36,673 nucleotides of DNA, taken from UHGV virus genome UHGV-0026823; one strand, 5' to 3'. Below, one piece after another: positions 1 to 36,673 of the stretch. Below the pieces are notes generated by a model. That model was not told the DNA's origin, searched no databases, and saw only the letters and a program-made list of their open reading frames with translations. The position numbers and the translations under genes are program-made. The stretch's first letter is position 1, and the number at the start of each line of letters is the position of its first letter. The DNA is from a virus.

Positions 1-300
1 ACAAATATAATTAATTAAAGATAAATTAATGATTAGATCTATAATAGAAATTAAATATTAATCTAATATTAAAAAAACTGTATATAAATATATATCTATA
101 ATAGTAATCTAATATATATCTACTTTAATCTAATATAAATTAATCTAACTTTAATTAATTAAACTTTAATCTATTAGAATCTATATTTAATCTACTAGGG
201 TTTATGCTCGACGTCAATATGCTATATTTATATTATACCACAATCTAACACCAATCTAACAAATTTAATCTAATATATTTACAAAAATTAATGTTTAATT
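1..300. repeat. AT-rich non-coding end region with short dispersed repeats. ATATATCTA occurs at 90-98 and 114-122. AATCTAA-type motifs are frequent, and the 11-mer CAATCTAACA is tandem at 241-261. This is probably part of the genome terminus, origin or packaging region.
   Basis: Direct reading. No ORF is present. The same 9-mer and 14-mer motifs (AAATATATATCTAT) recur at the right end. Confidence 0.55.
224..244 (-). promoter_or_regulatory. Sigma70-like extended -10 promoter element, copy 1. The minus strand reads ATTGTGGTATAATATAAATAT and points leftward.
   Basis: TGnTATAAT consensus is seen on the minus strand. The 20-mer is nearly identical to the copies at 30256-30275, 34548-34568 and 36314-36334. 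Confidence 0.45.
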
Positions 301-341
301 AAAATAAAGAAAAGGCGTAAACCTATTACTGATCTACGCCT
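301..341 (-). terminator. Rho-independent terminator after the last late gene. A 7-bp perfect stem (AGGCGUA/UACGCCU) with a 15-nt loop is followed by UUUUCUUUAUUUU on the minus-strand transcript.
   Basis: The inverted repeat is at 313-319 and 335-341. The plus-strand A-tract at 301-312 gives the minus-strand U-tract. It lies 30 nt after the stop of the 756-aa gene. Confidence 0.6.
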
Positions 342-12853: not shown

Positions 12854-14682
12854 TCTGCCCAATTATCTCCAACTTTAATATCTATTTGTAACCGACAATT
12901 TAATTTTAAATCTTTATTAGTTCTATCTACAGCTGTTTGCGCACATTGCTCGTAAACTGGAATCTTATCTGGTTTGACTTCTGCTTGGACTTCATCGTGG
13001 ACATTAAGTTTAATATTATAATCAGTGCCCCAAATCATTCCAGCTTTATCTAATTCTTCTACCAGATAGACTAAACATTGTTTCATTATAACTGCTCCAG
13101 TAGATTGTAATAATAAGTTTAATAAGCTATAGTCAGAACGAGCATGTAATTCGCGTTTATCTAATCCTGTGATAGTTCCTTTGGATCTGTACTGTTCCTT
13201 TAGGTTATTTTGTAGGGCTTCTAATCCTGGTAATGCTTTCATAAATTTATCAATTGCAATATTGACATCTTTAGTTGTATAAACTTTACCAGTGCCTGCT
13301 GATAATCCTTCAGCTAATTTCTTTTTACCAGCTCCATATAAATATGCATATTCAAAAGTTTTCGCTTGTTTTCGTGTTTCAAATCCTAGAGTTTTTTGAG
13401 TCCAGGTGTGAATGTCTCCTTCTTCAATTTCTTTTGTAAATTCAGGATTATTTACATAATGAGCTAGACACATATACTCGAGAGCTTTAGCGTCAAATCC
13501 AACTTGTTTAAATCCAGGATTTGCTTTAAATAATGATCGAACTTCAACTGCATATTTACCTTTGATTCCTAATATTGGTCCAGAATCGTTTGTTCTAACT
13601 CCCGGCATTGTAGATAAATTAGGATTTGTATGAGAGCATCGACCTGAAACTGTACCATCAACATACAATTTTCCATGAATTACATCATCCTTATCTAATA
13701 AATTGTAAACACTTGTATCTCCAGAATAAATCATTTTTTTAATTTTAGTTGCTGTTTTATATAATAATAAATCTTTAACTTCTGGATATTTATCTTCGAT
13801 ATTAGCTAGAACTTCATCATCTAAGCATGGTGTTGGTTCTTCTTTTCCTTTTCTTCTAACTAGCGGTGGATCAAAATTATATTTATCTTTTAGATATCTC
13901 ATCCAATGTTGAGTTGAATTTAGATTAAAGGGTGTTACTATTTCTCGGCATTCGATATCACCTTGTTTTATGTTTTTATTTTTATTTGATCTTGAGAACG
14001 TATGAAAAGTATAATCATAGAATGTTGGTAAGTGTTGAACTAATTCTTTTGCTGCATTTTCTTCATCTTCTGTAATTTGATCTACGAGTTGCAATAATTT
14101 AAGTTTATCAATTAAGTGGCCAGTAATAATTTGTTTAGAAATAATCTGAGCAAATTTACGATCAAGATCTATAGTGAATGGATCAAGATTATCAATATTA
14201 CATTGCCATAAAACTAATTCTGTTACTCGAACATCTTGTTGACAGTATGCACCCATTTCATCAGTGTACTTATCCCAAGCTTTATCTTTGATTTTCTTTC
14301 GTTCTTTCCATTCTTCTTCAGTAAACTCTTTACCAGTCATTGGATTAAATTTCTCAAATCCAAGTCGTTTACCCCAAGCTTCAAGTGAGTGCTGATTACT
14401 CGGGTATTCTGGAAAACAAATCATAGATAAATTAATTGTGTCTAAAACGTTATCTGTAAGTTTAATTTCAGGATATAATTTATTAATGACTGGCAGGTCA
14501 TATTGGATAATATTATGACCAATTAAAACATCAGCTTTTTGTAAGATATGTAAACCATCGATAATATGATTAGGATTGAACAAGCGAACATCTTTTTCTC
14601 CTATTATTTTTAAAGCTATACAGTGAATTCTATCAACATCTTGATATAATCCATTCGTTTCAAGGTCGAAAATTACTTGCAT
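12844..14682 (-). CDS. DNA polymerase, family A, T7-like, 612 aa. The 3'-5' exonuclease domain and polymerase domain are present and the thioredoxin-binding insert is absent.
   Basis: The N-terminal Exo I motif IFDLETNGL and HNIIQYDLPV resemble T7 gp5 (VSDIEANAL / FHNGHKYDVP). Polymerase motif B is RELHARSDYSLLNLLLQSTGA. Motif C is NVHDE. Confidence 0.85.
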   Translation of the reverse strand: MQVIFDLETNGLYQDVDRIHCIALKIIGEKDVRLFNPNHIIDGLHILQKADVLIGHNIIQYDLPVINKLYPEIKLTDNVLDTINLSMICFPEYPSNQHSLEAWGKRLGFEKFNPMTGKEFTEEEWKERKKIKDKAWDKYTDEMGAYCQQDVRVTELVLWQCNIDNLDPFTIDLDRKFAQIISKQIITGHLIDKLKLLQLVDQITEDEENAAKELVQHLPTFYDYTFHTFSRSNKNKNIKQGDIECREIVTPFNLNSTQHWMRYLKDKYNFDPPLVRRKGKEEPTPCLDDEVLANIEDKYPEVKDLLLYKTATKIKKMIYSGDTSVYNLLDKDDVIHGKLYVDGTVSGRCSHTNPNLSTMPGVRTNDSGPILGIKGKYAVEVRSLFKANPGFKQVGFDAKALEYMCLAHYVNNPEFTKEIEEGDIHTWTQKTLGFETRKQAKTFEYAYLYGAGKKKLAEGLSAGTGKVYTTKDVNIAIDKFMKALPGLEALQNNLKEQYRSKGTITGLDKRELHARSDYSLLNLLLQSTGAVIMKQCLVYLVEELDKAGMIWGTDYNIKLNVHDEVQAEVKPDKIPVYEQCAQTAVDRTNKDLKLNCRLQIDIKVGDNWAECH

Positions 14683-17725: not shown

Positions 17726-17888
17726 TAGTTTTACCTGTTATAAAATCTTTGATTCGTTCTGCACAATCTTTGCAACATATAAATGAGCCTCTGCAATTTG
17801 AAGTTACATAAGGTGGCTCTAGATAAATTTTAAATTGTCTATAGGATTCAATTTCTTTTGAACATTTATCACAAAAATATTTTATCAT
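17718..17888 (-). CDS. Zinc-ribbon mini-protein, 56 aa (MIKYFCDKCSKEIESYRQFKIYLEPPYVTSNCRGSFICCKDCAERIKDFITGKTNG). It was missed by the 60-aa ORF cutoff.
   Basis: CxxC...CxxC spacing. Its start overlaps the exonuclease stop (TAATG). Its stop overlaps the primase start (ATGGTTAA). Confidence 0.5.
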   Translation of the reverse strand: MIKYFCDKCSKEIESYRQFKIYLEPPYVTSNCRGSFICCKDCAERIKDFITGKTNG

Positions 17889-18769
17889 TATGGTAACTTT
17901 CCTTTTCTTTGATAAGCTTCTGTTCTGAATTGATTTATACGTTCCATTGAAGTAAAAATTTTGTTAAGGAATGGAATCTCCGTATGATCATCAATTGTAT
18001 GTTCTGGATGTAAACAATCAAACTCAAGTACTTTGGCTAGATCTTTTAACGGTACATTATATTTTGTTAACATTCGAAGTAATACCATGTTACTTGGAAA
18101 ATAAAACATTAATCCATGTTCTTTATACACGTCTTTTACAAATTCATAAACTTGATATAAATTTTTAAGGTTTTTATCTTCAAGTATTTTCTCAGCTGTA
18201 GCATAACCTACTTTAGGAACACCAGGGATATTATCAATTCTATCACCAAGTAAGAATTGTTTAGCTAATTCATGCATACTAGATTCAACGGTTGTTTCAA
18301 TCATTTTAATACCGTTGCGCTTCTTTGATTTAATGGTTAATTTAGGAATCTGTAAAAAGTCTTTATCGCACGAGATAATCATGACCTTGTTTGTCGGAAT
18401 TTCAACTAAGTTTGAAGCTATAATTGAGATTAAATCATCGCATTCAAATACCATTGATGAGACTACATTAAGATGAAAAGCATAAAGAATTTTTATAATT
18501 TCATTTTTAAATGCAGTCCATTGATCTGAATATTTATTTGTCCGTTGAGCTTTATAATAAGGGAAGAGACAGGTTCTAAAACCTCTGTTCATTGAAATAC
18601 AAAAATAGAATTTAACAGGAATTCTTGAATAATCTTTGTAATATCTTTTTGCTTCTCTTATTTCTCGATCTTTTACTCTGAGAATAGCTTGTACTGCTGT
18701 ATGAGGAGGTAATTGCTTTGCAAACAATGCTCTAAGTAAAATATCTCCGTCGTAAAGAATATGTATCAT
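17888..18769 (-). CDS. 5'-3' exonuclease / flap endonuclease, T7 gp6-like (also RNase H or Pol I N-terminal family), 293 aa.
   Basis: Canonical H3TH signature LLGDRIDNIPGVPKVGYATAEKIL. Acidic metal-binding residues are present in the N-terminal half. Confidence 0.85.
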   Translation of the reverse strand: MIHILYDGDILLRALFAKQLPPHTAVQAILRVKDREIREAKRYYKDYSRIPVKFYFCISMNRGFRTCLFPYYKAQRTNKYSDQWTAFKNEIIKILYAFHLNVVSSMVFECDDLISIIASNLVEIPTNKVMIISCDKDFLQIPKLTIKSKKRNGIKMIETTVESSMHELAKQFLLGDRIDNIPGVPKVGYATAEKILEDKNLKNLYQVYEFVKDVYKEHGLMFYFPSNMVLLRMLTKYNVPLKDLAKVLEFDCLHPEHTIDDHTEIPFLNKIFTSMERINQFRTEAYQRKGKLP

Positions 18770-18804
18770 ATTTATATTATACCCATTTAATTAAATATTT
18801 AAAC

Positions 18805-20370
18805 CTACTTTTTCTGTTCAAGTGGTGCAACTAATCGGATTGCAAAAATCTTTGTTGTAGGCATTAGTGAAATTTTAGTCCAATCAGCATATGAGATCGG
18901 ATATCTTAATGTTTTAGTGTATAAATACCACCAATTCTCTGGGTTGTTTTGATCTGTACGGATTGGGATATCTGAAGATACTGGGGTATCACTTGATGAT
19001 TCAGTTGAGATAGTGTTGCCGTCAATAATATTTATTTTACCTTCAAATATTATTTCTGTATCTCTCATTGTAGATCCACCATTATCTGGTTCGAGATCTG
19101 ATCCAATGTATATAAATGAATCAAAAGATAAAGTACCAGTTGTAGTGTCTATTGGTTCATACTCACCAGAATCTTCAACTTTAGTATATCTATAAAGAGT
19201 ACCTGAATCAATTAAATAACAAGAATAGTCTCCAAGAACTATTTCATTATTAGTGTGACATCCTGATTGAACTTTATTATTAAGAATATAAAACATCATA
19301 TTCCTACGTTGAGATGATTTAATAATCAATGAGTCAAGATCTTGACAATATAAAACCTCTTCTCGAAGGTATTGAGTTGTTAGATCTTCGTATGCAGATA
19401 ATTGATTAAGTTTAAGATATGTTCGAACTTTCATTAACCAAGTATTAAGAGATACATAAGCTCCTAATACTGTGATCGCTTCTTTATCAACTACAGCACA
19501 CGTAAATTTATCTACAGATCCAACGCCATACATTGGTAATTTATGCTGATATTCTTGTAGTACATTAAAGTCTTCTGCCGATACCCAATAAATTGAAGAT
19601 GTGTTATAATTTACAAGATAGAAGTTTGTTGCAGTTGGTTGGCCTACAAAATAAGATCCAACAATTCTCGAGTCTTCAGACCAAATAACAGTTGATGTTC
19701 CAGTTTCAACAGAGCTCCAATCATATGGAGTTGACCCAATGATATTTAATCTAGTTGATAAATAAAGAGTGTTACCTTGAACTAAAATGTCTCGGATATA
19801 GTTTGTTGCAGTTTTAAGGGTTGTTGTAGTCCAGCCTGATAATTTAATAGTAAATTCATCTCCAAATGAGTTTGGCATCGGAGTGTTATAATTTATAGTA
19901 TATTGTGTATCATTTATGTAACATCTAAACTCACCGAGAGGGATTATCCAATTAGATCCAACTTTGATTTCAAGCTGTTTAGATGAATTAATTCTTGCTG
20001 TGTATTCAATCTCAGATACAGGAGTTTTGTTATTTATGAATTGATATTCAACCTCTGTTTCATTAAACCCAACTATTCCTTGAAAGCCACCTCTGTATTT
20101 TTCCTTTACAGCCGGGAGTTCTGTTACAAGAAACCCAGAATCAGTTTTATATGCAACTCGTTGGTTGATTATATAAATAAATTCTGTTACAGGAGTGATT
20201 GTTTTAACTTTAACATTTTCACCTTCAATAGTAAATACTGATTCAGGAGTTAAGTTATAAGTTGAAACGTATCCTTGTTCATCAATATAATAATTAGTTC
20301 CATGGATTACAGGAATACCATTCTTTTCTTGGAGTTCTGGATTAATTCGAGTATCATTTGAAAATATCAT
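18805..20370 (-). CDS. Beta-rich virion protein, probably a tail or host-recognition component, 521 aa.
   Basis: Composition is high in N/S/T/Y/G with many short beta-like segments. The ORF belongs to a four-gene block of similar proteins. Confidence 0.4.
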   Translation of the reverse strand: MIFSNDTRINPELQEKNGIPVIHGTNYYIDEQGYVSTYNLTPESVFTIEGENVKVKTITPVTEFIYIINQRVAYKTDSGFLVTELPAVKEKYRGGFQGIVGFNETEVEYQFINNKTPVSEIEYTARINSSKQLEIKVGSNWIIPLGEFRCYINDTQYTINYNTPMPNSFGDEFTIKLSGWTTTTLKTATNYIRDILVQGNTLYLSTRLNIIGSTPYDWSSVETGTSTVIWSEDSRIVGSYFVGQPTATNFYLVNYNTSSIYWVSAEDFNVLQEYQHKLPMYGVGSVDKFTCAVVDKEAITVLGAYVSLNTWLMKVRTYLKLNQLSAYEDLTTQYLREEVLYCQDLDSLIIKSSQRRNMMFYILNNKVQSGCHTNNEIVLGDYSCYLIDSGTLYRYTKVEDSGEYEPIDTTTGTLSFDSFIYIGSDLEPDNGGSTMRDTEIIFEGKINIIDGNTISTESSSDTPVSSDIPIRTDQNNPENWWYLYTKTLRYPISYADWTKISLMPTTKIFAIRLVAPLEQKK

Positions 20371-20382
20371 TTTTATACGTCC

Positions 20383-22767
20383 TTATCTTGGCTGGTTAAA
20401 GGTTTTAGCGTAAGTATCCCAATTTAATCTATAATTGTTATAAAATTCTTCATCTGTTTGAACATCGGCATGATCAGTAGTTGTAACAGTAGAAGAGACT
20501 TTGTCTAAATTATTGTATGTTTGTACTTCATATAGATCACCAGCATCGCCATTAAAATTAACACCTAAACTAGCATCACCAAAAGTTATTCCTAGGGGTT
20601 TAATTCCAATTTTAAGAGGGGAATCTCGATAATAACCCGAGCCACTATAATAACCAAAATCAACAGTTAAACCATGTGATTTGTAGTTTGGCGTTGCTTC
20701 ACCAATGCAATATGCCTGAGCTATATATTGTTTATCTTTATCGTAGCATTTTAATACACCCCAAATTCTAGTGCCATATGATGATAGTGTACATAGTATA
20801 TATTTAACATTATTTATATCAGTTACGTTAGCCTCACCTGAGTTTCCATTTGTACAACCTAAGATAATTTTACCATTGGAGTAATATAATACAAAACCAG
20901 TACTTGAAGAGTTTACTATGCAGAATTGTGCATATCCTGAGGCGGTTGTTATTCTAGTAATTGTTTTGGGGTCAATTGAAAAACAAAATGAAGCAGAGTT
21001 TGTTCTATTACTTTCACCATCTGGATCATTATTAGTAAAAGATACATTTGATACTACTTTAAATGAATCATTTGAACTTCCACCATAACCTTTACAAGTT
21101 ATAATACCAGTATTAGGATCAAAATCATTTTGACGAGCTGTTGGTACAGTCCAGTTTGTAGAGTTTAAAGAATAAGTTTGATATTTATTTAGTGAATTTT
21201 CCTCAATAGCATCGGCGAGCGCTGCTGCGTCAAATTTATTTTCCTTATCTAATTCATTAAACCAAGGTCGATTGTAATAAAATTCTTTTTGCTTTGATAA
21301 TGCTAATCGTGTTGCTAGACCTTGAGGATCATTATCAGGAACTGATGTTAAACCAGAATCAAAATCCAAATTATAATCTGTACAACCGGATCTTCTATTT
21401 TTAAATACTAATTCATGATAGATTGCTTTACCTTGATATTTAATACCTTGATCACTATTTCTACCAGGTTGCCAAATTTGTTGAGGTGATTCAAGTTTAC
21501 CACGTGTATAAGAACAACCAGGAATAAATATTCTACAACATGATCCTCCTTCTTCTGGTAACCAAGGTAATTGAGAAGTCGATACACCACCAAATGAAGT
21601 TATTGTTGGATTAACATACCAAGATCCATAAGATACTGGGTGAGCATATTGAACACTATTTAATTCATCTGATTCATTACAACCAATTGTAGCAGTATAT
21701 GAATTATCATAACCGTTACCAAGATAATATAAAACTATACCTGGTACTTGCCGATGAGTTGTTTGAATATTGTTTTTTAAATTTCTTTTATCAGTTGTAT
21801 TCCAAGCAAATACATTTGCAAGTTGAGATTCAGTTACAAGAGCATCTTTAATTGAAGCACTATGAGCATAGTTAATACCTTGTTTAATACGATCTTCTCT
21901 TGATGTTAACAACGCTTGTTTTTGATCAAGAGTTATTAAATTATTATTATTGTAGTTATCTAGGGAATTCATGAATTCGTGTTGATCTGAAGTAAAGTTA
22001 ACTACGCTTTGACTTGGGGGATCTTTGATTTTAAATTGATCAACTCCAACTGATTCAAGATTGCCGTTTGATTTATTATAGTTTGCAATAGCAATTAATG
22101 TGCAATATCTACTTGATAAGTCTGTTTCAATTGATCCATTTTTACAACGATACCAAGAGTTATTAGTTGTATTAAACCACGCAACAACCTCATCAGTATA
22201 TGTTGAAGCTGGTATAGTATCCTGAAAGAAAATGTTATAAAATCTCCAATAATCAGTGGATGAAGCGTCACTTAATAATACATAATGAGATTGATAATTT
22301 TGAGAGCTATTACCTGAGAATGAATATGATCTATTAGAACCGGTGTAAGTATATTCTCCTTTACCTGTATTTATGTGCATATTTTGAGGGACTATAAAGT
22401 TAGTACCATCAACATAGCATAATGGAGAATCTGAATAATATCCATAATAATATTGATAAGATTCAAGATCTGTGATTTTAGAAGGTTTATTTCCTTTAGG
22501 ATCTAGTGTTAATTTGCTATTCCACATAGGAGCAGATGATGAATAAATTGATAAAGCAGTATTATTAGATAAATCTCTGTTAATCTTTTTATCAACAGTA
22601 TCTCCAAGAAGTAATTTTAATACAGGTCTGAGGCAAAATAGATCTGCATATTTATGTTGCGCTAACACATCAGCTTCATTAATTGATGTTGAAGCGAGTT
22701 GAGCCTCGTATGCATTTACTTTATCTACTATTAAATTTGCTCGAGTTTGAAGTTCAAGAAGATTCAT
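20383..22767 (-). CDS. Large virion protein, possibly tail tubular or fiber type, 794 aa.
   Basis: As above. It contains a CCRIFIPGC motif. The size matches tail tubular B proteins, but that match is only coincidental evidence. Confidence 0.4.
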   Translation of the reverse strand: MNLLELQTRANLIVDKVNAYEAQLASTSINEADVLAQHKYADLFCLRPVLKLLLGDTVDKKINRDLSNNTALSIYSSSAPMWNSKLTLDPKGNKPSKITDLESYQYYYGYYSDSPLCYVDGTNFIVPQNMHINTGKGEYTYTGSNRSYSFSGNSSQNYQSHYVLLSDASSTDYWRFYNIFFQDTIPASTYTDEVVAWFNTTNNSWYRCKNGSIETDLSSRYCTLIAIANYNKSNGNLESVGVDQFKIKDPPSQSVVNFTSDQHEFMNSLDNYNNNNLITLDQKQALLTSREDRIKQGINYAHSASIKDALVTESQLANVFAWNTTDKRNLKNNIQTTHRQVPGIVLYYLGNGYDNSYTATIGCNESDELNSVQYAHPVSYGSWYVNPTITSFGGVSTSQLPWLPEEGGSCCRIFIPGCSYTRGKLESPQQIWQPGRNSDQGIKYQGKAIYHELVFKNRRSGCTDYNLDFDSGLTSVPDNDPQGLATRLALSKQKEFYYNRPWFNELDKENKFDAAALADAIEENSLNKYQTYSLNSTNWTVPTARQNDFDPNTGIITCKGYGGSSNDSFKVVSNVSFTNNDPDGESNRTNSASFCFSIDPKTITRITTASGYAQFCIVNSSSTGFVLYYSNGKIILGCTNGNSGEANVTDINNVKYILCTLSSYGTRIWGVLKCYDKDKQYIAQAYCIGEATPNYKSHGLTVDFGYYSGSGYYRDSPLKIGIKPLGITFGDASLGVNFNGDAGDLYEVQTYNNLDKVSSTVTTTDHADVQTDEEFYNNYRLNWDTYAKTFNQPR

Positions 22768-22774
22768 TTATTAA

Positions 22775-24856
22775 TTATCCTTTAAAGTTTCCACTATTTA
22801 ATTTAGATATATCACCAAGCTTGTTAATATCGATATTACTTGCAATTAATATATTTTTATCACATTTATTAGTTGATTTTTGAGTTGAGAAATAATACGT
22901 AAATCTATCAGTTCCACATCCATGAGTCCAAGGTAATCCTTGATCTTCATATTGACATTTTAAATCTGTAATAATCATATAAATATCAACGCCAGTTAAA
23001 GGTTCAGGAGGAGAATCTGTTAAAGCAAAGTTTGCTGTTGCGGTAGTTGATCCGCAAAAACCACCATTACCTGATACAGATACACCGAATAATCCAATAC
23101 CTGATCCGCCAATACCACAACGTTGATCTCTTGTATAGCAATAAGCATTATCACTGTGACTAGTTTCAGTATGGGTTACTGTAGAGCAATCATCATCATT
23201 GCAGACATTAATAAGAATTTTCATCCCTTCCCTATTAGTTGAGAAATTTCTAACTGAAACAGCACAAGGATTATTTATAGTTAAGTCTTGATTTTTTCCG
23301 TCAACATATACAAATGGATTACCACAGCATGCGTCCCATCGTAAAGTTCCAGAATACATATTTGGATTATTATTGCCTTGATCTAATAATTTATAATTAG
23401 ATAAATCAGGTACATTTGGATTAAAATATGATCCAATAGTTTGGAAGCAGGTATTAATTGTTTGGGTACAATATGAATTTTCATATGCTGAATCTGAATA
23501 AGTAATTGTACCAGTCATACAACCACCATTAGATCCATTATCATTACCCGGGTTACCACCATCGCCGTAGTTGTTACCAGATCCATCTCCATTTGGAGTA
23601 AACATAAATTCATAGGACCAACCTTCACCTACAATTCTACCATTAAAATCAGTTATAGTAGGTATTGTTTGATCATCGTTATTTACAAATTTATATTCAA
23701 TATCTTTACTTGAGGTTTCTTCATATTCTTGCATATCTGGATCTTTAGGGAATACAAGAGTTTGATATGGAGTATATGTTCGACGAAGATTATTAAATGG
23801 AATAATTAATGAATCATGTGATATACAACTTAAATAACTTGGAGACCAATGTTGAGCATAAGAATCATGGTTATAGTGAACAGATCCTGATGTTCTATGA
23901 TAGATTCCTCGTTGAAGGAATGAATATGAATATTGACCAAGTGTATCTAAATTAGGAGTATCTAATGGAGTTGTATTAATTAAGTTGTGGCATAAATAAG
24001 AACCAGCTGTAGTAGCAGATCTAGGTTGAATTAAGTTTGATAACCACAATCCAGGTTTAGTAGTATTTGCAACTCCAAATTGACCAATAGATCCTATGAA
24101 TTGACATCTTGTAAGAGCAACTGCACCTTGAGTTCCTGTAAATTCAAGTTTAAAATAGTTATAATATTTAGTATTTGAAGATAGATCTACACTCCAAGTT
24201 GCTTGCACTGAACTTTGATCAGGGTTTGTTCCAGTTCCAATAGTTTCCCAAGTAGATCCGTCATCTGAGCCAGATATAGTTACTGTGTTTACTGGGTAAA
24301 GAGTAGTTGAAGTCTTATTCATAAAATTGATTGATGTTAAATTAAGAGGATCAATAAGATAAATAAGAACAGTTTGAGTATTTGAGTTAGAAGATTGATA
24401 CAAGCTAGAGTATGAAGTGTAGTTATTCCAACAATTATTAAAGTAAGACGTTGTATTCCATCCAGTTGATACTTCGCAATTTTTAGTAGTATCTATTACA
24501 TCTACGTGATCCAATAAGTATTGAGATTGATCATATGGTTTTGATGAAGTTATAACAGAGGATTTACCAATTGACTTTGTAGTTGAAGAAAATAAAGGTA
24601 AGCCGTCAATTAAAGTTGTAATATATTTTTTACCAGTTGAATCAATATTATTAACTAATATTTTATTAAGACCTTTAGTAATATATTTACGAGTCCATGT
24701 TCTTAATTGATCAAAATTTGGGTATGGTACAAGCTCAGCACCTGCCTCTTGAATAACAGTACCATCTTGTACATTTGTATTTTCAGCTTGTTTAAGTAGA
24801 TCTTCTATTCGATCTCTTTTAATTTTAGTTATTCGTTGATTCGATTTCCGTTTCAT
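22775..24856 (-). CDS. Large virion protein with a Gly/Asn-rich low-complexity segment and a Cys-rich C-terminal domain of about 20 Cys, 693 aa.
   Basis: Direct reading (GDGSGNNYGDGGNPGNDNGSNGGC ... WDACCGNP ... CNDDDCS ... CYTRDQRCG ... HGCGTD). Confidence 0.4.
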   Translation of the reverse strand: MKRKSNQRITKIKRDRIEDLLKQAENTNVQDGTVIQEAGAELVPYPNFDQLRTWTRKYITKGLNKILVNNIDSTGKKYITTLIDGLPLFSSTTKSIGKSSVITSSKPYDQSQYLLDHVDVIDTTKNCEVSTGWNTTSYFNNCWNNYTSYSSLYQSSNSNTQTVLIYLIDPLNLTSINFMNKTSTTLYPVNTVTISGSDDGSTWETIGTGTNPDQSSVQATWSVDLSSNTKYYNYFKLEFTGTQGAVALTRCQFIGSIGQFGVANTTKPGLWLSNLIQPRSATTAGSYLCHNLINTTPLDTPNLDTLGQYSYSFLQRGIYHRTSGSVHYNHDSYAQHWSPSYLSCISHDSLIIPFNNLRRTYTPYQTLVFPKDPDMQEYEETSSKDIEYKFVNNDDQTIPTITDFNGRIVGEGWSYEFMFTPNGDGSGNNYGDGGNPGNDNGSNGGCMTGTITYSDSAYENSYCTQTINTCFQTIGSYFNPNVPDLSNYKLLDQGNNNPNMYSGTLRWDACCGNPFVYVDGKNQDLTINNPCAVSVRNFSTNREGMKILINVCNDDDCSTVTHTETSHSDNAYCYTRDQRCGIGGSGIGLFGVSVSGNGGFCGSTTATANFALTDSPPEPLTGVDIYMIITDLKCQYEDQGLPWTHGCGTDRFTYYFSTQKSTNKCDKNILIASNIDINKLGDISKLNSGNFKG

Positions 24857-25796
24857 CTGCTACCATCCATATTGTTGGGTCTTTTGAAGTAAGAAATGTT
24901 GGTGTTAAATAATTTACGTTTGGATTAACTACCGTTGGATCAATATAACCAGTTACTTGATCTGGATTAATAATTGAATTTTGAGCAGTTCCAACTAAGG
25001 TGAATGGGACACCTCGTGTAGGAATTGATCTTGGAGTAGCTACACTTGCTCTGTAGTTAAAGTTAACTACTTGTGATAATCGATTATCTTCATAAGCTAC
25101 AGGTCCTGTAGTATACATTTGATCAAGACAAGATCCATAATAAAATAATGTTGATGATCCTACATATTGACCAGCTAGAGCTTGGAAGTCTGAATAAACT
25201 CCAGATAGATTTCCTTTATATACGTCTGGATGATTATCTACATTTGATTCTAAAGTATTAGTGGTGAGAGCATTAAGAGAAGGGTAGTTACAGTTAGGAA
25301 CAGTAGAACTAGTGATCTGGTTAGCATAGAATGTGTCGTTGTATTCCAATACTGTATGATTGTCATCATCAAGATAAAATATAGTAATATTATCATTTAA
25401 TTTCTCCGTAAGAACTGCGGTTGTAGAATCTTTTTTAAATACATCGTACATATATCCAGGACCATCAGAGTGACTTCCGGATGTTCTTAGATAATTACCA
25501 CACGAGTGAATTGTAGAACCAGTTCTTTCAAGGATACCAGTAAACAATTTTTTGATATCAGCAAATGCTGTATCAGTTAATAATTTATTATCAGTAATTG
25601 ATAAAGCATTTTTAAGAAGTGTAAACGCTGATTTCTTTTGAGATAGATCTACTTCGAAAGCATTATCCCAAACGAATTTCTGATAGACTTTTACAAGTCC
25701 ATTAGTATAATCTGTAAGGAATTGAATACATCTTTCATATTCGGATTGATTAGTAGATCCATCATCGTTTATTATTTTAAACTTTTCGACTGCCAT
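24825..25796 (-). CDS. Virion protein, possibly a tail adaptor or fiber-proximal protein, 323 aa.
   Basis: It is the first gene of the structural block and has a beta-rich composition. Confidence 0.35.
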   Translation of the reverse strand: MAVEKFKIINDDGSTNQSEYERCIQFLTDYTNGLVKVYQKFVWDNAFEVDLSQKKSAFTLLKNALSITDNKLLTDTAFADIKKLFTGILERTGSTIHSCGNYLRTSGSHSDGPGYMYDVFKKDSTTAVLTEKLNDNITIFYLDDDNHTVLEYNDTFYANQITSSTVPNCNYPSLNALTTNTLESNVDNHPDVYKGNLSGVYSDFQALAGQYVGSSTLFYYGSCLDQMYTTGPVAYEDNRLSQVVNFNYRASVATPRSIPTRGVPFTLVGTAQNSIINPDQVTGYIDPTVVNPNVNYLTPTFLTSKDPTIWMVADETEIESTNN

Positions 25797-25920: not shown

Positions 25921-26274
25921 TTAAATATCCTTATAAGATTTCCATTTGATTCCATTTTTATCACAGTAATCTGCATAACTTGTCTTAGAACCTTTATTAA
26001 TTTTGATATTAGGGTTTTGAAAAACCATTATAATCTCATATTCTGGATGTTGGTCAACTAGTAATTTCATTTTCTTTCGATCACTTGCTGTCCATCTTCC
26101 TTTTAATTCATAAATTAATTTACCACGAACAAAATCAGGAGTGTATTTATGTTTAGATTCAGGTATTGTGTAGTCAATTTTTATAGGTTCATATTTAAAT
26201 CCAAGATATTCTAGGTGTTTTGATAATCGCTCTTCGAATTTACTTCTGAACTTTGAATTTTTCTTCTTCACCAT
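25921..26274 (-). CDS. Endonuclease I, the Holliday-junction resolvase, T7 gp3 homologue, 117 aa.
   Basis: Clear similarity to T7 gp3: HKYTPDF vs HTYTPDF, KGRWTASDRKK vs KGLWESDDRKK, QHPEYEIIMVF vs QHPELDIRIVF, and KGSKTSYADYCDKNGIKW vs KGSPTSYGEFCEKHGIKF. Confidence 0.85.
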   Translation of the reverse strand: MVKKKNSKFRSKFEERLSKHLEYLGFKYEPIKIDYTIPESKHKYTPDFVRGKLIYELKGRWTASDRKKMKLLVDQHPEYEIIMVFQNPNIKINKGSKTSYADYCDKNGIKWKSYKDI

Positions 26275-28064: not shown

Positions 28065-28370
28065 CTATTTAAATTTTATTTGTAGATTATACATTCCAGA
28101 TTCAATATTATGATTGAATTTAACATATTCTACATTATCTAATTTGTTTAAATGATTAACTATTTTATCAAGGATAATCATTCCTTTTATACTAGCAAAT
28201 CCAACACATTCAACCAAGTAGGAAAGGTGAGTATTGAGTGCGAGTGATTTAATCAGCCGTTTGTAGTTGAACGGACCTTGATTGAAGTGTGGATGAACTA
28301 GTGTTATTCGTTTTTCTTGTTTATTAAATATTATTCTTTTTGTATAAGGTAATATTTCATCTAACCACAT
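28065..28370 (-). CDS. Hypothetical protein immediately downstream of the ThyA-family gene, which it overlaps by 10 nt, 101 aa.
   Basis: ORF only. It is translationally coupled to the upstream enzyme gene. Confidence 0.45.
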   Translation of the reverse strand: MWLDEILPYTKRIIFNKQEKRITLVHPHFNQGPFNYKRLIKSLALNTHLSYLVECVGFASIKGMIILDKIVNHLNKLDNVEYVKFNHNIESGMYNLQIKFK

Positions 28371-29164
28371 TTTATAAATTCCTGAGCAAATTTAGATTTA
28401 AAATAATGCAATGCGTCTTTATCTTTTTCAGATAGTGATTTTAAATAATCTTTTAATTCTTTTGGAGAGCTGAATTCATAAGGATTAAATGGTGTATAAT
28501 TCTCAAAGAAACTAGGTGGGTTGTCAATTATTGTTACAGCTTTACCAAAATGTTGCTCATATATATGTTGAGAACCTGCATTAATTGAGATGTCTCCTAA
28601 TTCAAGAGTTATACCTCGTTGTTTCAGGCATAACATTATATACCCAGTTAGCATTGTAAAATTAAATATATCATAAGGAAGTCCTAACCAAATGTCACTT
28701 GACCTCATGTTATCTATACAATAAATTCTTCCATTTCTAATAAACCATTGAACTGAAATTGTACAAGGAATATCTTTAGATTCTCGTGGATTAGGCCTCC
28801 AGATAGTCATAACAGCCTGTCTAGAGTCAGGATCTTTTTCAAGTGTATCAACAATATATCTAATTTGGTCTACAACTCTTGGACCATATGCACCATCAAA
28901 ATGAATACCATCATTTGAGAATGTTGAAATAGCTTTTGAGTAATTAGTTATTGTATCAACAGAGTTACGACCGTCCATAATCCACCATGCTTCACGAACC
29001 ATAAATCTATATCCTAATTTACGTTCAGCGATTGATAGAATTGGATAACGCATATCGACTGTAAAATGCTGATTTAATAATTCTTTAATTAAAAATCCAC
29101 GGGGTTCATGGATTTCACCAAATCGTAATAGTTCTCCTAATCTAGTATACCATTCTATATTCAA
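28361..29164 (-). CDS. Thymidylate synthase-family pyrimidine C5-transferase, 267 aa. It carries the dCMP-hydroxymethylase-type specificity residue, so it is predicted to be a deoxycytidylate hydroxymethylase or methylase rather than a dTMP synthase.
   Basis: Alignment to E. coli ThyA: REAWWIMDGRNS vs HELLWFLQGDTN, DPDSRQ vs DPDSRR, the catalytic Cys in IPCTISVQW vs APCHAFFQF, RSSDIWLGLPYD vs RSCDVFLGLPFN, and GSQHIY vs GDTHLY. The Asn177-equivalent position (LGLPFN) is Asp (LGLPYD). Confidence 0.75.
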   Translation of the reverse strand: MNIEWYTRLGELLRFGEIHEPRGFLIKELLNQHFTVDMRYPILSIAERKLGYRFMVREAWWIMDGRNSVDTITNYSKAISTFSNDGIHFDGAYGPRVVDQIRYIVDTLEKDPDSRQAVMTIWRPNPRESKDIPCTISVQWFIRNGRIYCIDNMRSSDIWLGLPYDIFNFTMLTGYIMLCLKQRGITLELGDISINAGSQHIYEQHFGKAVTIIDNPPSFFENYTPFNPYEFSSPKELKDYLKSLSEKDKDALHYFKSKFAQEFIKCG

Positions 29165-29848
29165 TTAAATTTCTCCTTTATCAATAGCTTCAACTGCAAA
29201 TGAAGCGTAATTAATTAAATCAAGTAATGTATCTCGGATACTTTCATTATTAGGTTTTTTAGTTTGTTGAGCTAGAGAATTTAATCTTTGGGTTTTTGTG
29301 TGTAACATTTGGGCATATGATAATAAACCAAATGGAAAATAGTTTGCTCGAGATTGGGGTTTATCAGAACCATTATTATAATCTTGAGATTTCTTTATAG
29401 CAATTTTAGTTACTTCTTTGAATACGTCTGGGATATTTTGAATTATTTCATATTCAGCAATAAAGCTTTCAGGGTGATCTAAAATTTGTTTAATCTTTTC
29501 TTCAGGACCAATCCAAGTAGATGGTTTAGTTGCATCTGTATCTGAACCACGACCTTTATTACCTTTATTCTTTTTTAGATTACATCTATAAACTTCATCA
29601 AATGCAAGCTCAAATTCTTTTTCAGAATATCCAAGTTCTTGAGCTCGACCTATTACAAAGAATATTAAATCAATAATAGCGTCTAGCATTCCAACTCGAT
29701 CTAAAGCATCATGAGCGTGCATAAACTCTGTTAATTCTTCGTTAACTACAGTTTTAAACCATTCACGACGTTCTTCATTTAAAAATGGAGTTGATTTAAG
29801 TTTAATTATTCTATCATTAAAATCTTTTACTTTTCTAAATTCAAACAT
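29165..29848 (-). CDS. MazG-like all-alpha nucleoside-triphosphate pyrophosphohydrolase, a candidate dCTPase or dUTPase, 227 aa.
   Basis: EELTEF ... DALDRVGMLDAIIDLIFF fits the MazG/HisE EExxE...D..D helix pattern. The stop abuts the start of the ThyA-family gene (29164/29165). Confidence 0.5.
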   Translation of the reverse strand: MFEFRKVKDFNDRIIKLKSTPFLNEERREWFKTVVNEELTEFMHAHDALDRVGMLDAIIDLIFFVIGRAQELGYSEKEFELAFDEVYRCNLKKNKGNKGRGSDTDATKPSTWIGPEEKIKQILDHPESFIAEYEIIQNIPDVFKEVTKIAIKKSQDYNNGSDKPQSRANYFPFGLLSYAQMLHTKTQRLNSLAQQTKKPNNESIRDTLLDLINYASFAVEAIDKGEI

Positions 29849-30226: not shown

Positions 30227-30255
30227 AGGTTAGTTCCTCCTTTTATTTTTTGAAC

Positions 30256-30275
30256 ATATAAATATTATACCCAGA
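30256..30275 (-). promoter_or_regulatory. Sigma70-like promoter element, copy 2 (minus strand TCTGGGTATAATATTTATAT). It lies about 30 nt upstream of the SD of gene 29852-30226.
   Basis: TATAAT plus a downstream ATTTATAT block identical to the copy at 36321-36334. G at -14 is retained. Confidence 0.45.
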
Positions 30276-30297
30276 TTAATTATAAATATAACATAAA

Positions 30298-30786
30298 CTA
30301 TTCTTTTTCTTTACATTTCTTAATATACCAGTTAATTTTATTTCGAAAATAATCCTGAACTTGAATTGGAGTTAGCTCTGTTTTCCAAGGTAGATAAGTA
30401 ATGTCAACTTTACCTTGTTTAATATTATGAGCTAAATCAAATCCATAGTGAGTATAAACTTGAGTTACTGGAATTTTATATTTTATACACATTCGGGCTG
30501 TGAGTTGACACATTGTTTCAAATTGAATATTAGTTATTGGAAATCTAGAAATCTTATCTCGTAAATTAAAATTAAAATTACAACAAGCAGCTATTCCTAT
30601 TGAGCCAGTATTTCCTCGTAAAGTGTGAGCTGCATATTTTCCATCAGATACATCCTCATTATCTTCTGGTTTATATTTACCACAATAAATATGACCTAAA
30701 TTATCAATTAAATAATGATAAGCTTTTTTATCTGTGTTGTTTGGAATATAACTTCCGGCAGTATGATGTAATATTATTCGTTTCAT
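30298..30786 (-). CDS. N-acetylmuramoyl-L-alanine amidase, T7 lysozyme (gp3.5)-like and PGRP/Amidase_2 family, 162 aa.
   Basis: N-terminal ILHHTAG, the central AAHTLRGN..SIGIAACCNF block and the C-terminal YTHYGF pattern resemble the T7 lysozyme layout (HCSAT, GSHAKGYN..SIGVCLVG, AHHEVAPKACP). Confidence 0.7.
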   Translation of the reverse strand: MKRIILHHTAGSYIPNNTDKKAYHYLIDNLGHIYCGKYKPEDNEDVSDGKYAAHTLRGNTGSIGIAACCNFNFNLRDKISRFPITNIQFETMCQLTARMCIKYKIPVTQVYTHYGFDLAHNIKQGKVDITYLPWKTELTPIQVQDYFRNKINWYIKKCKEKE

Positions 30787-33914: not shown

Positions 33915-34133
33915 TTAAATAATCCTTTCTAATTCTAAATCTGATAAATAATAAGAATAAACTTTTGAGGCTTTTCGTTCTCGTAGTCTTGTGTTCATCT
34001 TTTTAATTTTATTTTGAATTTCTTCGGCTGTGTCAGGGTCTACAAAAGATTGTCGAGAAAATTCACCTGTTTTTCTATCTCGAATTGTTAAAACACCTTT
34101 TGAGTATCCTGTTAAATATCTTTTCATTGACAT
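33915..34133 (-). CDS. Hypothetical early protein, 72 aa, with the start moved to the ATG (MSMKRYL...). The ORF track uses an upstream TTG.
   Basis: A GGAGG SD lies 7 nt upstream of the ATG at 34133. Confidence 0.45.
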   Translation of the reverse strand: MSMKRYLTGYSKGVLTIRDRKTGEFSRQSFVDPDTAEEIQNKIKKMNTRLRERKASKVYSYYLSDLELERII

Positions 34134-34230
34134 AATCAATCCTCCAAATTAAATTAAATTAAAGTTAAAGTAAATATTATCCCGAATGTTATAAATAATA
34201 ACATTGCTATTTCTATAATTGAATTAGTTA

Positions 34231-34400: not shown

Positions 34401-34433
34401 AAAGAAAAGACGGATTTGCATAGTTTCATCCGT
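34401..34433 (-). terminator. Candidate intrinsic terminator: a 6-bp stem (ACGGAU/AUCCGU) with a 12-nt loop, followed by CUUUUCUUU on the minus-strand transcript.
   Basis: The inverted repeat is at 34410-34415 and 34428-34433. The plus-strand A-tract is at 34401-34409. The stem is modest. Confidence 0.35.
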
Positions 34434-34547
34434 TTGTGTAGTATTGTTAAGGAGTAGTTAAGAGGTAAGAAAACATGAGATTCATAACAACTATGCTCTG
34501 ATATCTTGATTGGGGATTGATTATGAGAAAACTTTTATTTAATCCCG

Positions 34548-34568
34548 ATATTTATATTATACCACAAT
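34548..34568 (-). promoter_or_regulatory. Sigma70-like extended -10 promoter element, copy 3 (minus strand AAATTGTGGTATAATATAAATAT).
   Basis: It is identical to the left-end copy over TTGTGGTATAATATAAATAT. Confidence 0.45.
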
Positions 34569-34601
34569 TTAAGGTATTTTAAACATAATTTTAACTTTTG
34601 T

Positions 34602-34820
34602 TTACAAATTGTAACATCTTTCAAGCATAAACAATAAATCTAATCGTTCACAAACTTCTTCACAAAAATAAGATAGGTCAACATTATCATAAAATCCAAT
34701 GTAAGCACAATTATCTTCGTCGCAATATTGATAAAAGCAATCTGTTTCATCAATTAAATCCATAATATATTGATAATTTAATGTTTCATTATCAAGTTGC
34801 ATCATTTGAATATTACTCAT
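34602..34820 (-). CDS. Acidic Cys-rich small protein, 72 aa.
   Basis: ORF with a CxxC-like spacing (CFYQYCDEDNC ... CEEVC). Confidence 0.4.
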   Translation of the reverse strand: MSNIQMMQLDNETLNYQYIMDLIDETDCFYQYCDEDNCAYIGFYDNVDLSYFCEEVCERLDLLFMLERCYNL

Positions 34821-35189: not shown

Positions 35190-35503
35190 AACATAATTCC
35201 TGGGTCTGTTACTTCAACTAATATTGATTCTTGATTTAAAGTAGATTTTAAAATATCACAATTATTTCGAATTAATTTACGTAACTCTTTTTCTTCACAT
35301 TCATCAATAAAAGTTGTTACAATTAAGCTTAGTTCTTCTATTGTTTTATTGTTTCTATTTGTAAATCTGCCAATAGCTTCAACTAAAGTGTAGTCCTTGA
35401 ATATTTCATCAAATAATTTAATGAAATTTCGTTTACATAGCTCAGGCTTTAATGTGTCTTTGTCATTTGTTCCAATATAATAAATCACTTTAATCATAAT
35501 CAA
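35183..35503 (-). CDS. Hypothetical early protein, 106 aa.
   Basis: ORF only. Confidence 0.4.
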   Translation of the reverse strand: MIMIKVIYYIGTNDKDTLKPELCKRNFIKLFDEIFKDYTLVEAIGRFTNRNNKTIEELSLIVTTFIDECEEKELRKLIRNNCDILKSTLNQESILVEVTDPGIMLC

Positions 35504-35518
35504 TCATCCTTTTTTCAA

Positions 35519-35983: not shown

Positions 35984-36145
35984 TTATTTTTCAATATTTA
36001 CTTTTAATTTATCAGATATATCTGATATTAATTTAAGAAATTCATCATCAATGTCATCATTATAACCATTATAATAAATTAGGTCACGGAGTTCTAATAA
36101 ACGATAAATTTTTTGTTCCATTGAATTTAGTTCATTAAATTTCAT
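35984..36145 (-). CDS. First early gene, 53 aa (MKFNELNSMEQKIYRLLELRDLIYYNGYNDDIDDEFLKLISDISDKLKVNIEK).
   Basis: A strong AAGGAG SD lies 8 nt upstream. It is about 40 nt downstream of the promoter at 36188-36204. Confidence 0.45.
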   Translation of the reverse strand: MKFNELNSMEQKIYRLLELRDLIYYNGYNDDIDDEFLKLISDISDKLKVNIEK

Positions 36146-36187
36146 AATCAATTCTCCTTAGTTTTTAATTAATTAATTAATCCTTAT

Positions 36188-36204
36188 ATTATTATTATAC
36201 CATG
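36188..36204 (-). promoter_or_regulatory. Leftmost early promoter of the gene array (minus strand CATGGTATAATAATAAT, TGnTATAAT).
   Basis: Extended -10 on the coding strand, about 45 nt upstream of the first early ATG. Confidence 0.45.
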
Positions 36205-36313
36205 TTTAAAATATTTTTAAATCTTTTTAATCTAATTATTTACAAAAGTTTACAAAGTATTAAATATTAATTTATGTAACAATTTGGCTTGTTTGGGGTT
36301 TCAAATGATATGT

Positions 36314-36334
36314 TTTGTGGTATAATATTTATAT
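36314..36334 (+). promoter_or_regulatory. Plus-strand copy of the conserved extended -10 element (TTTGTGGTATAATATTTATAT). It points away from the genes toward the genome end.
   Basis: A perfect TGnTATAAT on the plus strand. It is divergent from the minus-strand promoter at 36188-36204. Confidence 0.4.
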
Positions 36335-36429
36335 ACGCGTAAATTCAATTTCGACGCGACGCACGATGTGACTCATCGAAGCTTGAATTATTTTCGAACA
36401 TTGACAATTTTCTTTTCTTTCTTTTTGAG

Positions 36430-36673
36430 CGGAATCTTTTTCTTTCTTTTCTTTTATATATTTAATTATTAATGTATACAAATTATATATTTAATATATA
36501 ATGTATATAAATTTATTATATATATTTTTATATACAGTTTTTTTTAAATAATTATATATCTACTATAGAACAAATATATATCTATTATATTTTAAATCTA
36601 TAATGATAATATATATCTATTATATAATCTATAAATATATTATCTAATCTAAGATATTAAATCTATTATGTAT
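36430..36673. repeat. AT-rich non-coding end region. ATATATCTA repeats lie at 36554-36562, 36576-36584 and 36611-36619, with TATATA runs between them. It is related to the left-end repeats.
   Basis: Direct reading. The 14-mer AAATATATATCTAT occurs at 36573-36586 and at 87-100. Confidence 0.55.

Follow-up and report, generated by a model that had tools for sequence, protein, structure and literature searches.

The genome UHGV-0026823, a stretch of 36,673 nucleotides of viral DNA that was analysed over its full length (called the window below), raises the question of how a phage that carries T7-like replication genes, apparently without an RNA polymerase of its own, gets these genes transcribed, and what part is played in this by a TATAAT-containing motif that is repeated along the genome, for example on the minus strand around position 30,256. 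The window is essentially one whole phage genome with 30% G+C, and all its open reading frames (ORFs) of at least 100 aa are located on the minus strand except for one (100 aa, within a minus-strand gene). Six copies of the motif were found, and they are probably the real promoters of this phage, read by the RNA polymerase holoenzyme of the host, most likely with its primary sigma factor.

The core of the repeat, the 16-mer GGTATAATATWWATAT, is present in the window in five exact copies and in one copy with a single mismatch (sites A to F; Table 1). The first-pass annotation, made from the nucleotide letters alone, had listed four long copies and a shorter one: all of them exist on the strands given there, with coordinates correct to within one base, and the shorter one (site E) does lie just upstream of the first early gene. 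The count of at least five reuses can be raised to six, since site F, directly before the 5'-3' exonuclease gene, had been overlooked. With up to two mismatches allowed, the 16-mer gave 7 hits against 0.85 ± 0.85 in dinucleotide shuffles, and none of 100 shuffles reached 7. A 21-nt position weight matrix (PWM), a scan of the kind already proposed in the first-pass annotation, scored the six sites at 23–28 bits with no other site at 10 bits or above on both strands (73 kb), while Markov shuffles produced 1.0, 0.1 and 0 hits at 10, 14 and 18 bits, respectively, which places the motif far above the frequency that is random for this base composition. A generic sigma70 consensus scan returned 126 sites against 127 expected, the chance level in A/T-rich DNA; the significance belongs to the specific long motif and not to TATAAT as such. 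Non-coding DNA accounts for no more than 6.7% of the window, and all six sites are located in it. Five of them are co-oriented with downstream genes or RNA, and site D points towards non-coding DNA rich in repeats. No intergenic signal other than these sites is repeated in the genome; a search of the window for repeats found no other long intergenic repeat fit for a phage RNA polymerase.

Scanning IMG/VR with the bare 16-mer gave scattered single matches in unrelated contigs and was uninformative. The motif was not found in second-tier relatives of the amidase (40–50% identity, 31–43% G+C), which share only this gene with the window, and it is therefore specific to the clade described below. 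The DNA polymerase gene is followed by a gap of 95 nt, in which a further sequence, TGGTATGAT at 12807-12815 (minus strand), scores below 10 bits and has no conserved downstream block. It may be a seventh, weak promoter of this extended -10 type.

Table 1. Positions of the promoter sites, of the sequences associated with them and of the main genes in the window, with their counterparts in related genomes.
Feature	Position	Strand	Elements and remarks	Counterparts in relatives
Promoter A	223..295	-	TATAAT 232-237; predicted +1 at A225; TGTAAA 278-283; GTTAGA (-35) 255-260; TGG 238-240; ATAAATAT block 224-231	L170, L171, L172, L291
Repeat copy A	243..224	-	TTGTGGTATAATATAAATAT	
Intrinsic terminator	301..341	-	strong (-15.1 kcal/mol, z = -5.6), then U-run; just upstream of promoter A	
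Promoter F	18767..18804	-	AGGTTTAA-N14-GGGTATAAT-ATAAAT, then exonuclease ATG 18767-18769 = predicted +1; hexamer 18781-18776	
Repeat copy F	18787..18767	-	AATGGGTATAATATAAATATG; directly before the 5'-3' exonuclease gene	
Movable F-type cassette	18767-18787	-		L170 ~16980; L251 ~5898; L001 1604; L291 16679
Promoter B	30255..30316	-	TATAAT 30264-30269; predicted +1 at A30257; TGTAAA 30310-30315; GTTATA 30287-30292; GGG 30270-30272; ATTTATAT 30256-30263	L170, L171, L172, L291, L292, L294
Repeat copy B	30274..30256	-	CTGGGTATAATATTTATAT	
Promoter C	34547..34608	-	TGTGG-TATAAT 34556-34566 (hexamer 34561-34556); predicted +1 at A34549; TGTAAA 34601-34606; GTTTAA 34579-34584; ATAAATAT 34548-34555	
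Repeat copy C	34567..34548	-	TTGTGGTATAATATAAATAT	
Promoter E (variant copy)	36185..36257	-	TGG-TATAAT 36194-36202 (hexamer 36199-36194); predicted +1 at A36187; TTTGTAAA boxes 36239-36246 and 36249-36256; ATTTAA 36217-36222; AATAATAT 36186-36193	
Repeat copy E (shorter variant)	36203..36194	-	ATGGTATAAT	
Promoter D	36263..36335	+	only plus-strand copy; TGTGG-TATAAT 36316-36326 (hexamer 36321-36326); predicted +1 at A36333; TGTAAC 36275-36280; GTTTCA 36298-36303; ATTTATAT 36327-36334	kept in L172/L252 and L294; degenerate in L170; not found in L171
Repeat copy D	36315..36334	+	TTGTGGTATAATATTTATAT	
Non-coding RNA or leader from promoter C	34549..34401	-	~149 nt; 5' hairpin 34512-34547; box1 GCAUAGUU 34489-34496; hairpin and U-run 34401-34433, loop AACUAUGC	L170:4160-4310; L172:3195-3326; L171:3876-3966
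Junction, left part	1..222		iterons; arm TATATACAGTTTTTTT at 71-86 (minus strand)	
Junction, right part	36336..36673		polypurine (GAAAA)n tract; iterons; arm AAAAAAAACTGTATATA at 36529-36545 (minus strand)	
Large terminase	9806-11074		only remote likeness to siphophage terminases	
Family A DNA polymerase	12844-14682			
5'-3' exonuclease	17888-18769	-		
Endonuclease I	25921-26274		T7-type	
Amidase_2 lysozyme	30298-30786			
Nucleotide genes (thymidylate-synthase-like, pyrophosphohydrolase-like, PF18909)	28361-29848 and 12188-12748	-		

Neither an RNA polymerase nor a sigma factor gene was found in any ORF by comparison with Pfam, PHROGs and NCBIfam. The initial statement that the window holds no ORF large enough for an RNA polymerase was incorrect, as ORFs of 693, 756, 768 and 794 aa exist, but the absence of a detectable phage RNA polymerase stands: there was no match to such an enzyme in Pfam or PHROGs, and no DxDGD-type metal-binding motif in any large ORF. 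A PDB-sequence search with six ORFs, of the four large ones those of 693 and 794 aa, detected no RNA polymerase or sigma factor either; these two ORFs gave no meaningful match in it and have a fibre/adhesin-like composition rich in N, S, T, G and Y. A T7-type single-subunit polymerase was likewise rejected as the reader of the sites: no RNA_pol match was obtained, and the motif is built around TATAAT, with TTGACA/TATAAT promoters taking its place in relatives. The combination of a T7-like module with a missing polymerase, to which the first-pass annotation had drawn attention, is thus real but not new, being known from SIO1 and VpV262, podophages of the T7 supergroup without an RNA polymerase gene (PMC1079782). 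The window shares with them a T7-like DNA polymerase, primase/helicase, endonuclease I, exonuclease and amidase next to the absent phage polymerase, but represents a separate clade with another gene order and a terminase that is not T7-like, and comes from the gut, with a probable Bacilli host, instead of from marine Proteobacteria. Since the T7-like module comes without a phage RNA polymerase, transcription would depend on the host, and the whole programme would run from the six sites.

Relatives for comparison were drawn from IMG/VR, from ENA/Logan contigs and from one GTDB genome. The clade genomes among them (L170/L002/L253; L171/L003/L254; L172/L001/L252; L251; and the group of L291, L292 and L294) are approximately 65–85% identical to the window in coding DNA, and the promoter cassette is present at orthologous positions in at least four relatives. 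First 22 promoters and then 39 distinct ones were aligned on the hexamer, with numbering from a start placed 7 nt after it. According to this alignment, each site would be a cassette of about 70 nt, consisting of one or two TGTAA boxes, GTTWnA, K-G-G at -15 to -13, WATAAT, an AWWAAT discriminator and T-1 A+1 T+2.

In the set of 22, A-11, T-10, A-9, A-8 and T-7 are invariant and position -12 is occupied by T (15) or A (7), while G-14 and G-13 are each present in 20 promoters, preceded by K at -15 (T in 11, G in 10). All six window sites have TATAAT, with TGTGG in front of it in A, C and D, TGG in E and GGG in B and F. The initially proposed TGnTATAAT consensus therefore holds for the TATAAT hexamer and for G-14, but the bases fixed next to the hexamer are G-14/G-13 and not T-15/G-14. 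Similarly, the claim that none of the copies has a good -35 hexamer is valid only with respect to TTGACA: the -35 position (17-nt spacer equivalent) carries a conserved GTTWnA (G-35 in 18/22, T-34 in 21/22, T-33 in 19/22 and A-30 in 19/22), and further upstream 29 of the 39 promoters have a TGTAA box at about -58, at a fixed offset of 45–47 nt from the hexamer, joined in the E-type promoters by a second one 10–11 nt further upstream (about -68). Two other readings of these upstream blocks were rejected, namely the proximal TGTTAKA as a second, tandem extended -10 element, in which the equivalent of T-7 is not conserved, and the distal TTGTAA as a -35 element for the proximal box, for which the spacing would be 19–20 nt.

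Downstream of the hexamer, A-6, T-1 and T+2 are invariant in the same set, and A-3, A-2 and A+1 are present in 19, 20 and 20 of the 22 promoters, respectively. The conserved downstream block recognised in the first-pass annotation is thus real and fits a fixed start and a conserved 5' end of the transcript, but the phage factor suggested to act on it found no support: the block gave no sign of being bound by such a factor, of its versions, ATAAAT is the reverse complement of ATTTAT, and relatives vary here (AATAAT, ATTAAT, ATATGT). Most probably it represents the AWWAAT discriminator together with the first two transcribed bases (AU), forming an optimised Y-1/R+1 start. The sequence between the conserved blocks varies among the aligned promoters, so the blocks are kept by selection and not only by recent duplication.

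The comparison with relatives also points to the identity of the polymerase. The orthologues of promoter C in L170 and L291 have the canonical TTGACA-17-TATAAT structure without GG, while the window copy belongs to the GG class, and this switch implies that a canonical sigma70/SigA-type holoenzyme reads these genomes; perfect TTGACA-17-TATAAT promoters are also present among the E-type orthologues (in L170 and L292). Among the 39 promoters, a TTGACA-like -35 element at 17–18 nt spacing is present in five of the eight lacking GG and in only one of the 31 having it (Fisher p = 5e-4, the promoters being related by descent); one promoter of L292, TTGACA-17(TGTGG)-TATAAT, combines both elements. 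Such a trade-off is what the extended -10 theory would predict for a single primary-sigma holoenzyme, and the original proposal of sigma70-family promoters with a TGn/TRTG-type extension is supported by it. The promoter features fit a low-GC Gram-positive or Mollicute-like host; GTDB places Mycoplasma pneumoniae in the class Bacilli. In M. pneumoniae, the promoter strength is dominated by positions -17 to -13 with a weak contribution of the -35 region, the extensions rank as TGG = TGT > TGA > TGC, and transcription starts 7 nt after the hexamer with a preference for a purine at +1 (PMC5573727). The window promoters resemble the '-16 region' promoters (TRTGn-TATAAT) of Gram-positive bacteria and Mollicutes in having TGTGG-TATAAT (A, C and D) or TGG (E), but differ in the GGG of B and F, where T-15 is absent, in a -35 position that is not free to vary, and in a block from -6 to +2 that is far more conserved than is usual in cellular promoters.

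Several points weigh against a simple primary-sigma interpretation. The aligned promoters share descent as orthologues and paralogues, so that the counts and p-values overstate their independence. The -35 region should drift if it were made dispensable by an extended -10 element, yet GTT at -35 to -33 is present in 29 of the 31 GG-class promoters against one of the eight others, and the invariance of G-13 is foreign to the TGn element of Escherichia coli. Site F of the window is an exact match to the SigB consensus in the form GTTTAA-N14-GGGTAT (PMC9847131). Finally, the start sites, the activity and strength of the promoters, the sigma factor that reads them and the functions of TGTAA and GTTWnA are all predictions, and the assignment of the host depends on one metagenomic bin.

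The linkage of GTT(-35) with GG(-14/-13) looks like a bipartite specificity distinct from TTGACA, and it would find an explanation if a group-3 sigma factor of the host (SigB/SigF/SigG type), alone or together with the primary sigma, read the GG-class sites through GTTWnA-N14-KGGWAT, an alternative that we regard as unlikely. The -10 pattern of SigF is GGnrAnAnTw, and GGGAATAATA of the relatives fits it. The SigB consensus, GTTTAA-N12-17-GGGTAT with an optimal spacer of 14 nt, is close to that of the GG class (PMC9847131), sharing with it GTTWnA, the 14-nt spacer and KGGWAT, and site F, AGGTTTAA-N14-GGGTAT, follows it exactly; the tight GTT/GG linkage also speaks for this reading. In contrast to SigB promoters of Bacillales, the window sites also hold a complete TATAAT and a conserved discriminator: with A-9, A-8, T-7 and A-6 invariant, a full primary-sigma -10 element is present that is not expected at SigB-type promoters. 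Moreover, the exchange of orthologues for GG-less TTGACA-17-TATAAT implies functional equivalence under one holoenzyme. All window promoters, that of the first early gene included, are of the GG class and drive the whole lytic programme, which would thus need a stress sigma factor that is normally inactive, and few sigma factors are to be expected if the host belongs to a gut order of Bacilli with reduced genomes, as assumed from the label 'Bacilli bacterium'.

A primary-sigma polymerase might, alternatively, be assisted by an accessory DNA-binding factor (an early phage protein, an injected virion protein or a host protein) on phased TGTWA boxes, those at about -68, -58 and -35 replacing or assisting -35 recognition in the style of T4 MotA/AsiA or of a class II activator; this appears distinctly unlikely. 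The fixed offset of TGTAA in 29/39 promoters and its second copy in the E-type would suit such a factor, as would the -35 element TGTTAKA, which shares the TGTWA core approximately two helical turns downstream, and the iteron TAGATTA, which overlaps promoters A and E; the invariant discriminator could even be an operator. The absence of a TGTAA box from the F-type promoters, the window copy included, suggests under this assumption two regulatory classes. T4 middle promoters offer a precedent, pairing a sigma70 -10 element, frequently one with TGn, with a phage-specific box at -35 (PMC2988021), but profile searches of the ORFs detected no MotA-, AsiA- or other regulator-like protein. In B promoters, the TGTAAA box lies within conserved C-terminal codons of the amidase (K-C-K), and its conservation there is therefore partly a coding constraint. 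The promoter of the first early gene has the same boxes (in L171 it is of full GG class), so no newly made phage protein can be required there, and an activator of this origin is improbable as a requirement of the promoters in general. The T4 middle promoter itself was rejected as a model for the sites: a box at -35 is present, but a MotA/AsiA-like protein is lacking and the immediate-early promoters share the box. The T4 late promoter (gp55) was rejected as well, since its TATAAATA is contained in A, C and F, but B and D have the inverted form TATTTATA; the block is absent from E and from many orthologues, and no gp55-like protein was detected.

About equally improbable as an accessory factor is that the GG-class cassette marks the site of some other specificity determinant, either a group-3-type sigma of the host or an unrecognised host or virion factor re-targeting region 4. 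If true, this would mean a lytic gut phage running its entire programme, from immediate-early genes to leaderless late operons and transcription into the junction/origin region, on a non-housekeeping form of the host RNA polymerase.

That the repeat is no promoter at all, being a chance A/T repeat, a packaging or recombination signal or the site of an unrecognised phage RNA polymerase, is very improbable, and the statistics together with the comparison of relatives largely refute it. In its favour, TATAAT-like strings are common at 30% G+C, the junction region in which two copies are located probably contains signals for replication or packaging as well, and several large ORFs have no assigned function. 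Against it, the over-representation of the 16- to 21-nt motif is about 100-fold or higher, and the motif is confined to intergenic DNA at module boundaries in the orientation of the genes and exchanges with perfect TTGACA-17-TATAAT in relatives, while neither a T7-type polymerase or DxDGD motif nor a second repeated intergenic motif was found.

The F-type promoters give indirect evidence on the position of the transcription start. In the window, L170 and L251 the exonuclease gene is preceded by TATAAT-N6-ATG, which puts the ATG at the predicted +1 without a Shine-Dalgarno (SD) sequence before it, while in L001 and L171 no promoter is present at this gene and the same ATG follows an AAGGAAA SD. 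The N-terminus of the exonuclease, MIHILYDGD, is the true start of a FEN-type nuclease. The same cassette, GGGWATAAT-N6-ATG, stands before a fibre gene in L001, L291, L292 and L294, and in L291 an independently called gene start coincides with the +1 of the F-type promoter. The exchange between promoter-ATG and SD across five genomes supports a start at the A located 7 nt after the hexamer, and the F-type transcripts are predicted to be leaderless. A leaderless phage mRNA is known in lambda, whose cI is transcribed from PRM in this form. The likeness includes the AUG, predicted in the window to be the first transcribed triplet, 7 nt after the -10 hexamer, and the missing SD; in contrast to lambda cI, the promoter-AUG cassette of the window clade is conserved and movable between the exonuclease and the fibre gene. 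At promoter B, the ATG at +1 starts a mini-ORF of four codons before the SD of a 124-aa gene, and mini-ORFs of few codons are opened by the ATG at +1 of B-type promoters in general.

From these elements the following transcription programme may be proposed. Promoter E would start the early genes, the first of which has its ATG at 36143. Promoter C would make a structured leader or small RNA of about 149 nt ending in a hairpin with a U-run, and promoter B would start the block of nucleotide metabolism and fibre genes with the 124-aa gene at its head. The replication, packaging and structural block would be started by promoter F as a leaderless mRNA with AUG as the first transcribed triplet, while A and D would fire convergently into the iteron-rich junction region. 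Three early genes have a common translation-initiation string, GGAnnATTGATTATG (34131-34145, 35495-35509 and 36143-36157, minus strand; 3 matches against 0.09 expected). The E-type transcripts start with a similar AAGGATTRATTAA, which is not followed by an ATG.

The RNA predicted downstream of promoter C is kept in all lineages examined and has no Rfam match. Its terminal hairpin has different stems in four orthologues (ACGGAU, ACGAG, UUGAGU and GAUUGC), each followed by a U-run, and although weak (-3.9 to -6.4 kcal/mol) it has the characteristics of an intrinsic terminator or attenuator, i.e., a stem-loop with U-run and compensatory change. The loop of 12–16 nt carries AACUAURC, complementary to the upstream box GYAUAGUU, and double changes that arose twice independently preserve the pairing (window: GCAUAGUU/AACUAUGC; L171: GUAUAUCU/AGAUAUAC). 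RNAalifold gave eight pairs; in three of these both bases have changed in a compensatory way, and no pair is broken. Five sequence variants underlie this evidence. CU-rich boxes resembling an anti-SD (ACUCCUUA) are located between box1 and the terminal hairpin. Linkers of only 2 nt leave hardly any room for the 8-bp loop helix and the terminator stem at the same time, and a terminator/antiterminator leader is therefore our working guess for this RNA. In L172 (~3241) and L171 (~3901) box1 overlaps an internal TGTTATAAT with the extended -10 consensus, whose window counterpart reads TGTTATGAAT (34483-34491, minus strand); in L171, which is without the upstream C promoter, it could be the promoter of a shorter RNA.

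Promoters A and D have to be seen together with the ends of the window. Promoter A follows the terminator of the last structural gene and points into a non-coding iteron region, while D points away from E and, across the same region, towards A. In three related contigs the sequence continues unbroken from the equivalent of window positions ~292..22 into 36669..36233, so that the ends of the window mark the place where the assembly cut a genome that is circular or terminally redundant; hence A and D converge on one region and do not run off linear ends. This region of about 900 nt, continuous across the window ends, is non-coding (1-371 plus 36144-36673, 902 nt) and contains TAGAT(TA) iterons in a strong strand bias (23 on the minus strand against one on the plus strand), as well as an inverted pair, TATATACAGTTTTTTT / AAAAAAAACTGTATATA, whose arms are approximately 210 nt apart and which is kept in four out of four genomes compared. 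The predicted A and D starts flank the iterons convergently at a distance of about 565 nt. The region may represent an origin, a terminal repeat or a site of packaging, and A and D may supply transcription into a replication origin or concatemer junction.

A similar arrangement can be recognised in the T7 record, where phiOR (39229) lies after the last gene towards the right end, the E. coli promoter A0 (224) is directed leftward at the left end, and phiOL and A1-A3 follow. By position, A corresponds to phiOR, D to A0 and E to A1-A3, and the region between the flanking promoters is full of short direct repeats, the iterons in the window; in T7, short repeat arrays lie beside the terminal repeat. 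The difference is that phiOR and phiOL are read by the phage RNA polymerase, while all promoters of the window are of the host type.

The remaining gene content of the window includes a DnaB-like helicase, a primase, a thymidylate-synthase-like protein and a pyrophosphohydrolase-like protein in addition to the genes in Table 1; no tRNA gene and no Rfam match at E <=1 were found. A DNA polymerase identical to that of the window is present on an ENA scaffold of 36,728 nt. Among GenBank phages, the closest DNA polymerases are those of pelagiphage with merely 31–34% identity, and megablast of 12 kb of the window against the GenBank phages gave no match. The clade of uncultured human-gut phages is abundant, its DNA polymerase cluster having 147 members at 90% identity. 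Among the distant amidase relatives several contigs carry the human-gut metagenome label, and the near-complete relative genome L251, a contig of 34.6 kb, was binned in 'MAG: Bacilli bacterium', making a Bacilli host probable.

The genes for the thymidylate-synthase-like and pyrophosphohydrolase-like proteins are present in the window and missing from all close relatives, because of which queries with the thymidylate-synthase and hydrolase genes retrieved unrelated phages. The N-terminal domain of a dATP/dGTP diphosphohydrolase (PF18909) is encoded downstream of the DNA polymerase, and these genes together may serve nucleotide-pool manipulation or DNA modification. Four large ORFs at 18805-25796 on the minus strand (521, 794, 693 and 323 aa) consist to 39–45% of N, S, T, G and Y and are the least conserved part of the genome, as in fibre or adhesin proteins; one of them gave a weak F5/8 type C match. 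They are located amid DNA-metabolism genes, between endonuclease I and the exonuclease, away from the structural module, which is an odd order for a T7-like layout. Just 3' of a 327-aa ORF (5898-6881), taken as the capsid gene from its position only, a hairpin CAGGGCAGCttaattGCTGCtCTG is present at 5869-5892 (minus strand); it recalls the terminator located behind the gene of the major capsid protein in T7-like phages.

Phages with 'super-consensus' promoters for the host polymerase are already known, and the core of the original interpretation, extended -10 promoters in a T7-like phage without its own RNA polymerase, is right. The early promoters of T4 have a consensus extending beyond the standard elements, are read by the unmodified sigma70 polymerase of the host and capture it right after infection (PMC2988021). 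The likeness to these 'uber' promoters (UP/-35/TGn/-10) consists in a phage without RNA polymerase that reuses promoters of the host type, very strong in T4 and predicted to be strong in the window. In contrast to T4, the window phage, which probably has a low-GC Gram-positive host, has GTTWnA at -35 in most copies instead of a TTGACA-like hexamer, a TGTAA box in place of the A-rich UP element, an invariant G-13, and a nearly invariant discriminator and +1/+2. What goes beyond the standard rules of the primary sigma are the linked GTT/GG signature, the phased TGTAA boxes and the movable leaderless cassette, and the most interesting of these is the combination of the linked GTT(-35)/GG(-14/-13) with the phased boxes.

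The promoter sequence also informs on the host: the TRTG-type extension, TTGACA in the relatives and strong SD use support the weak binning evidence for Bacilli. The cassette, including its leaderless version, is predicted to serve as a compact strong promoter in low-GC Firmicutes or Mollicutes-like hosts. Taken together, the six sites provide a clean map of transcription that can be tested, for a clade of phages from the human gut that is uncultured and joins T7-like replication genes with a probably complete dependence on the RNA polymerase of the host.

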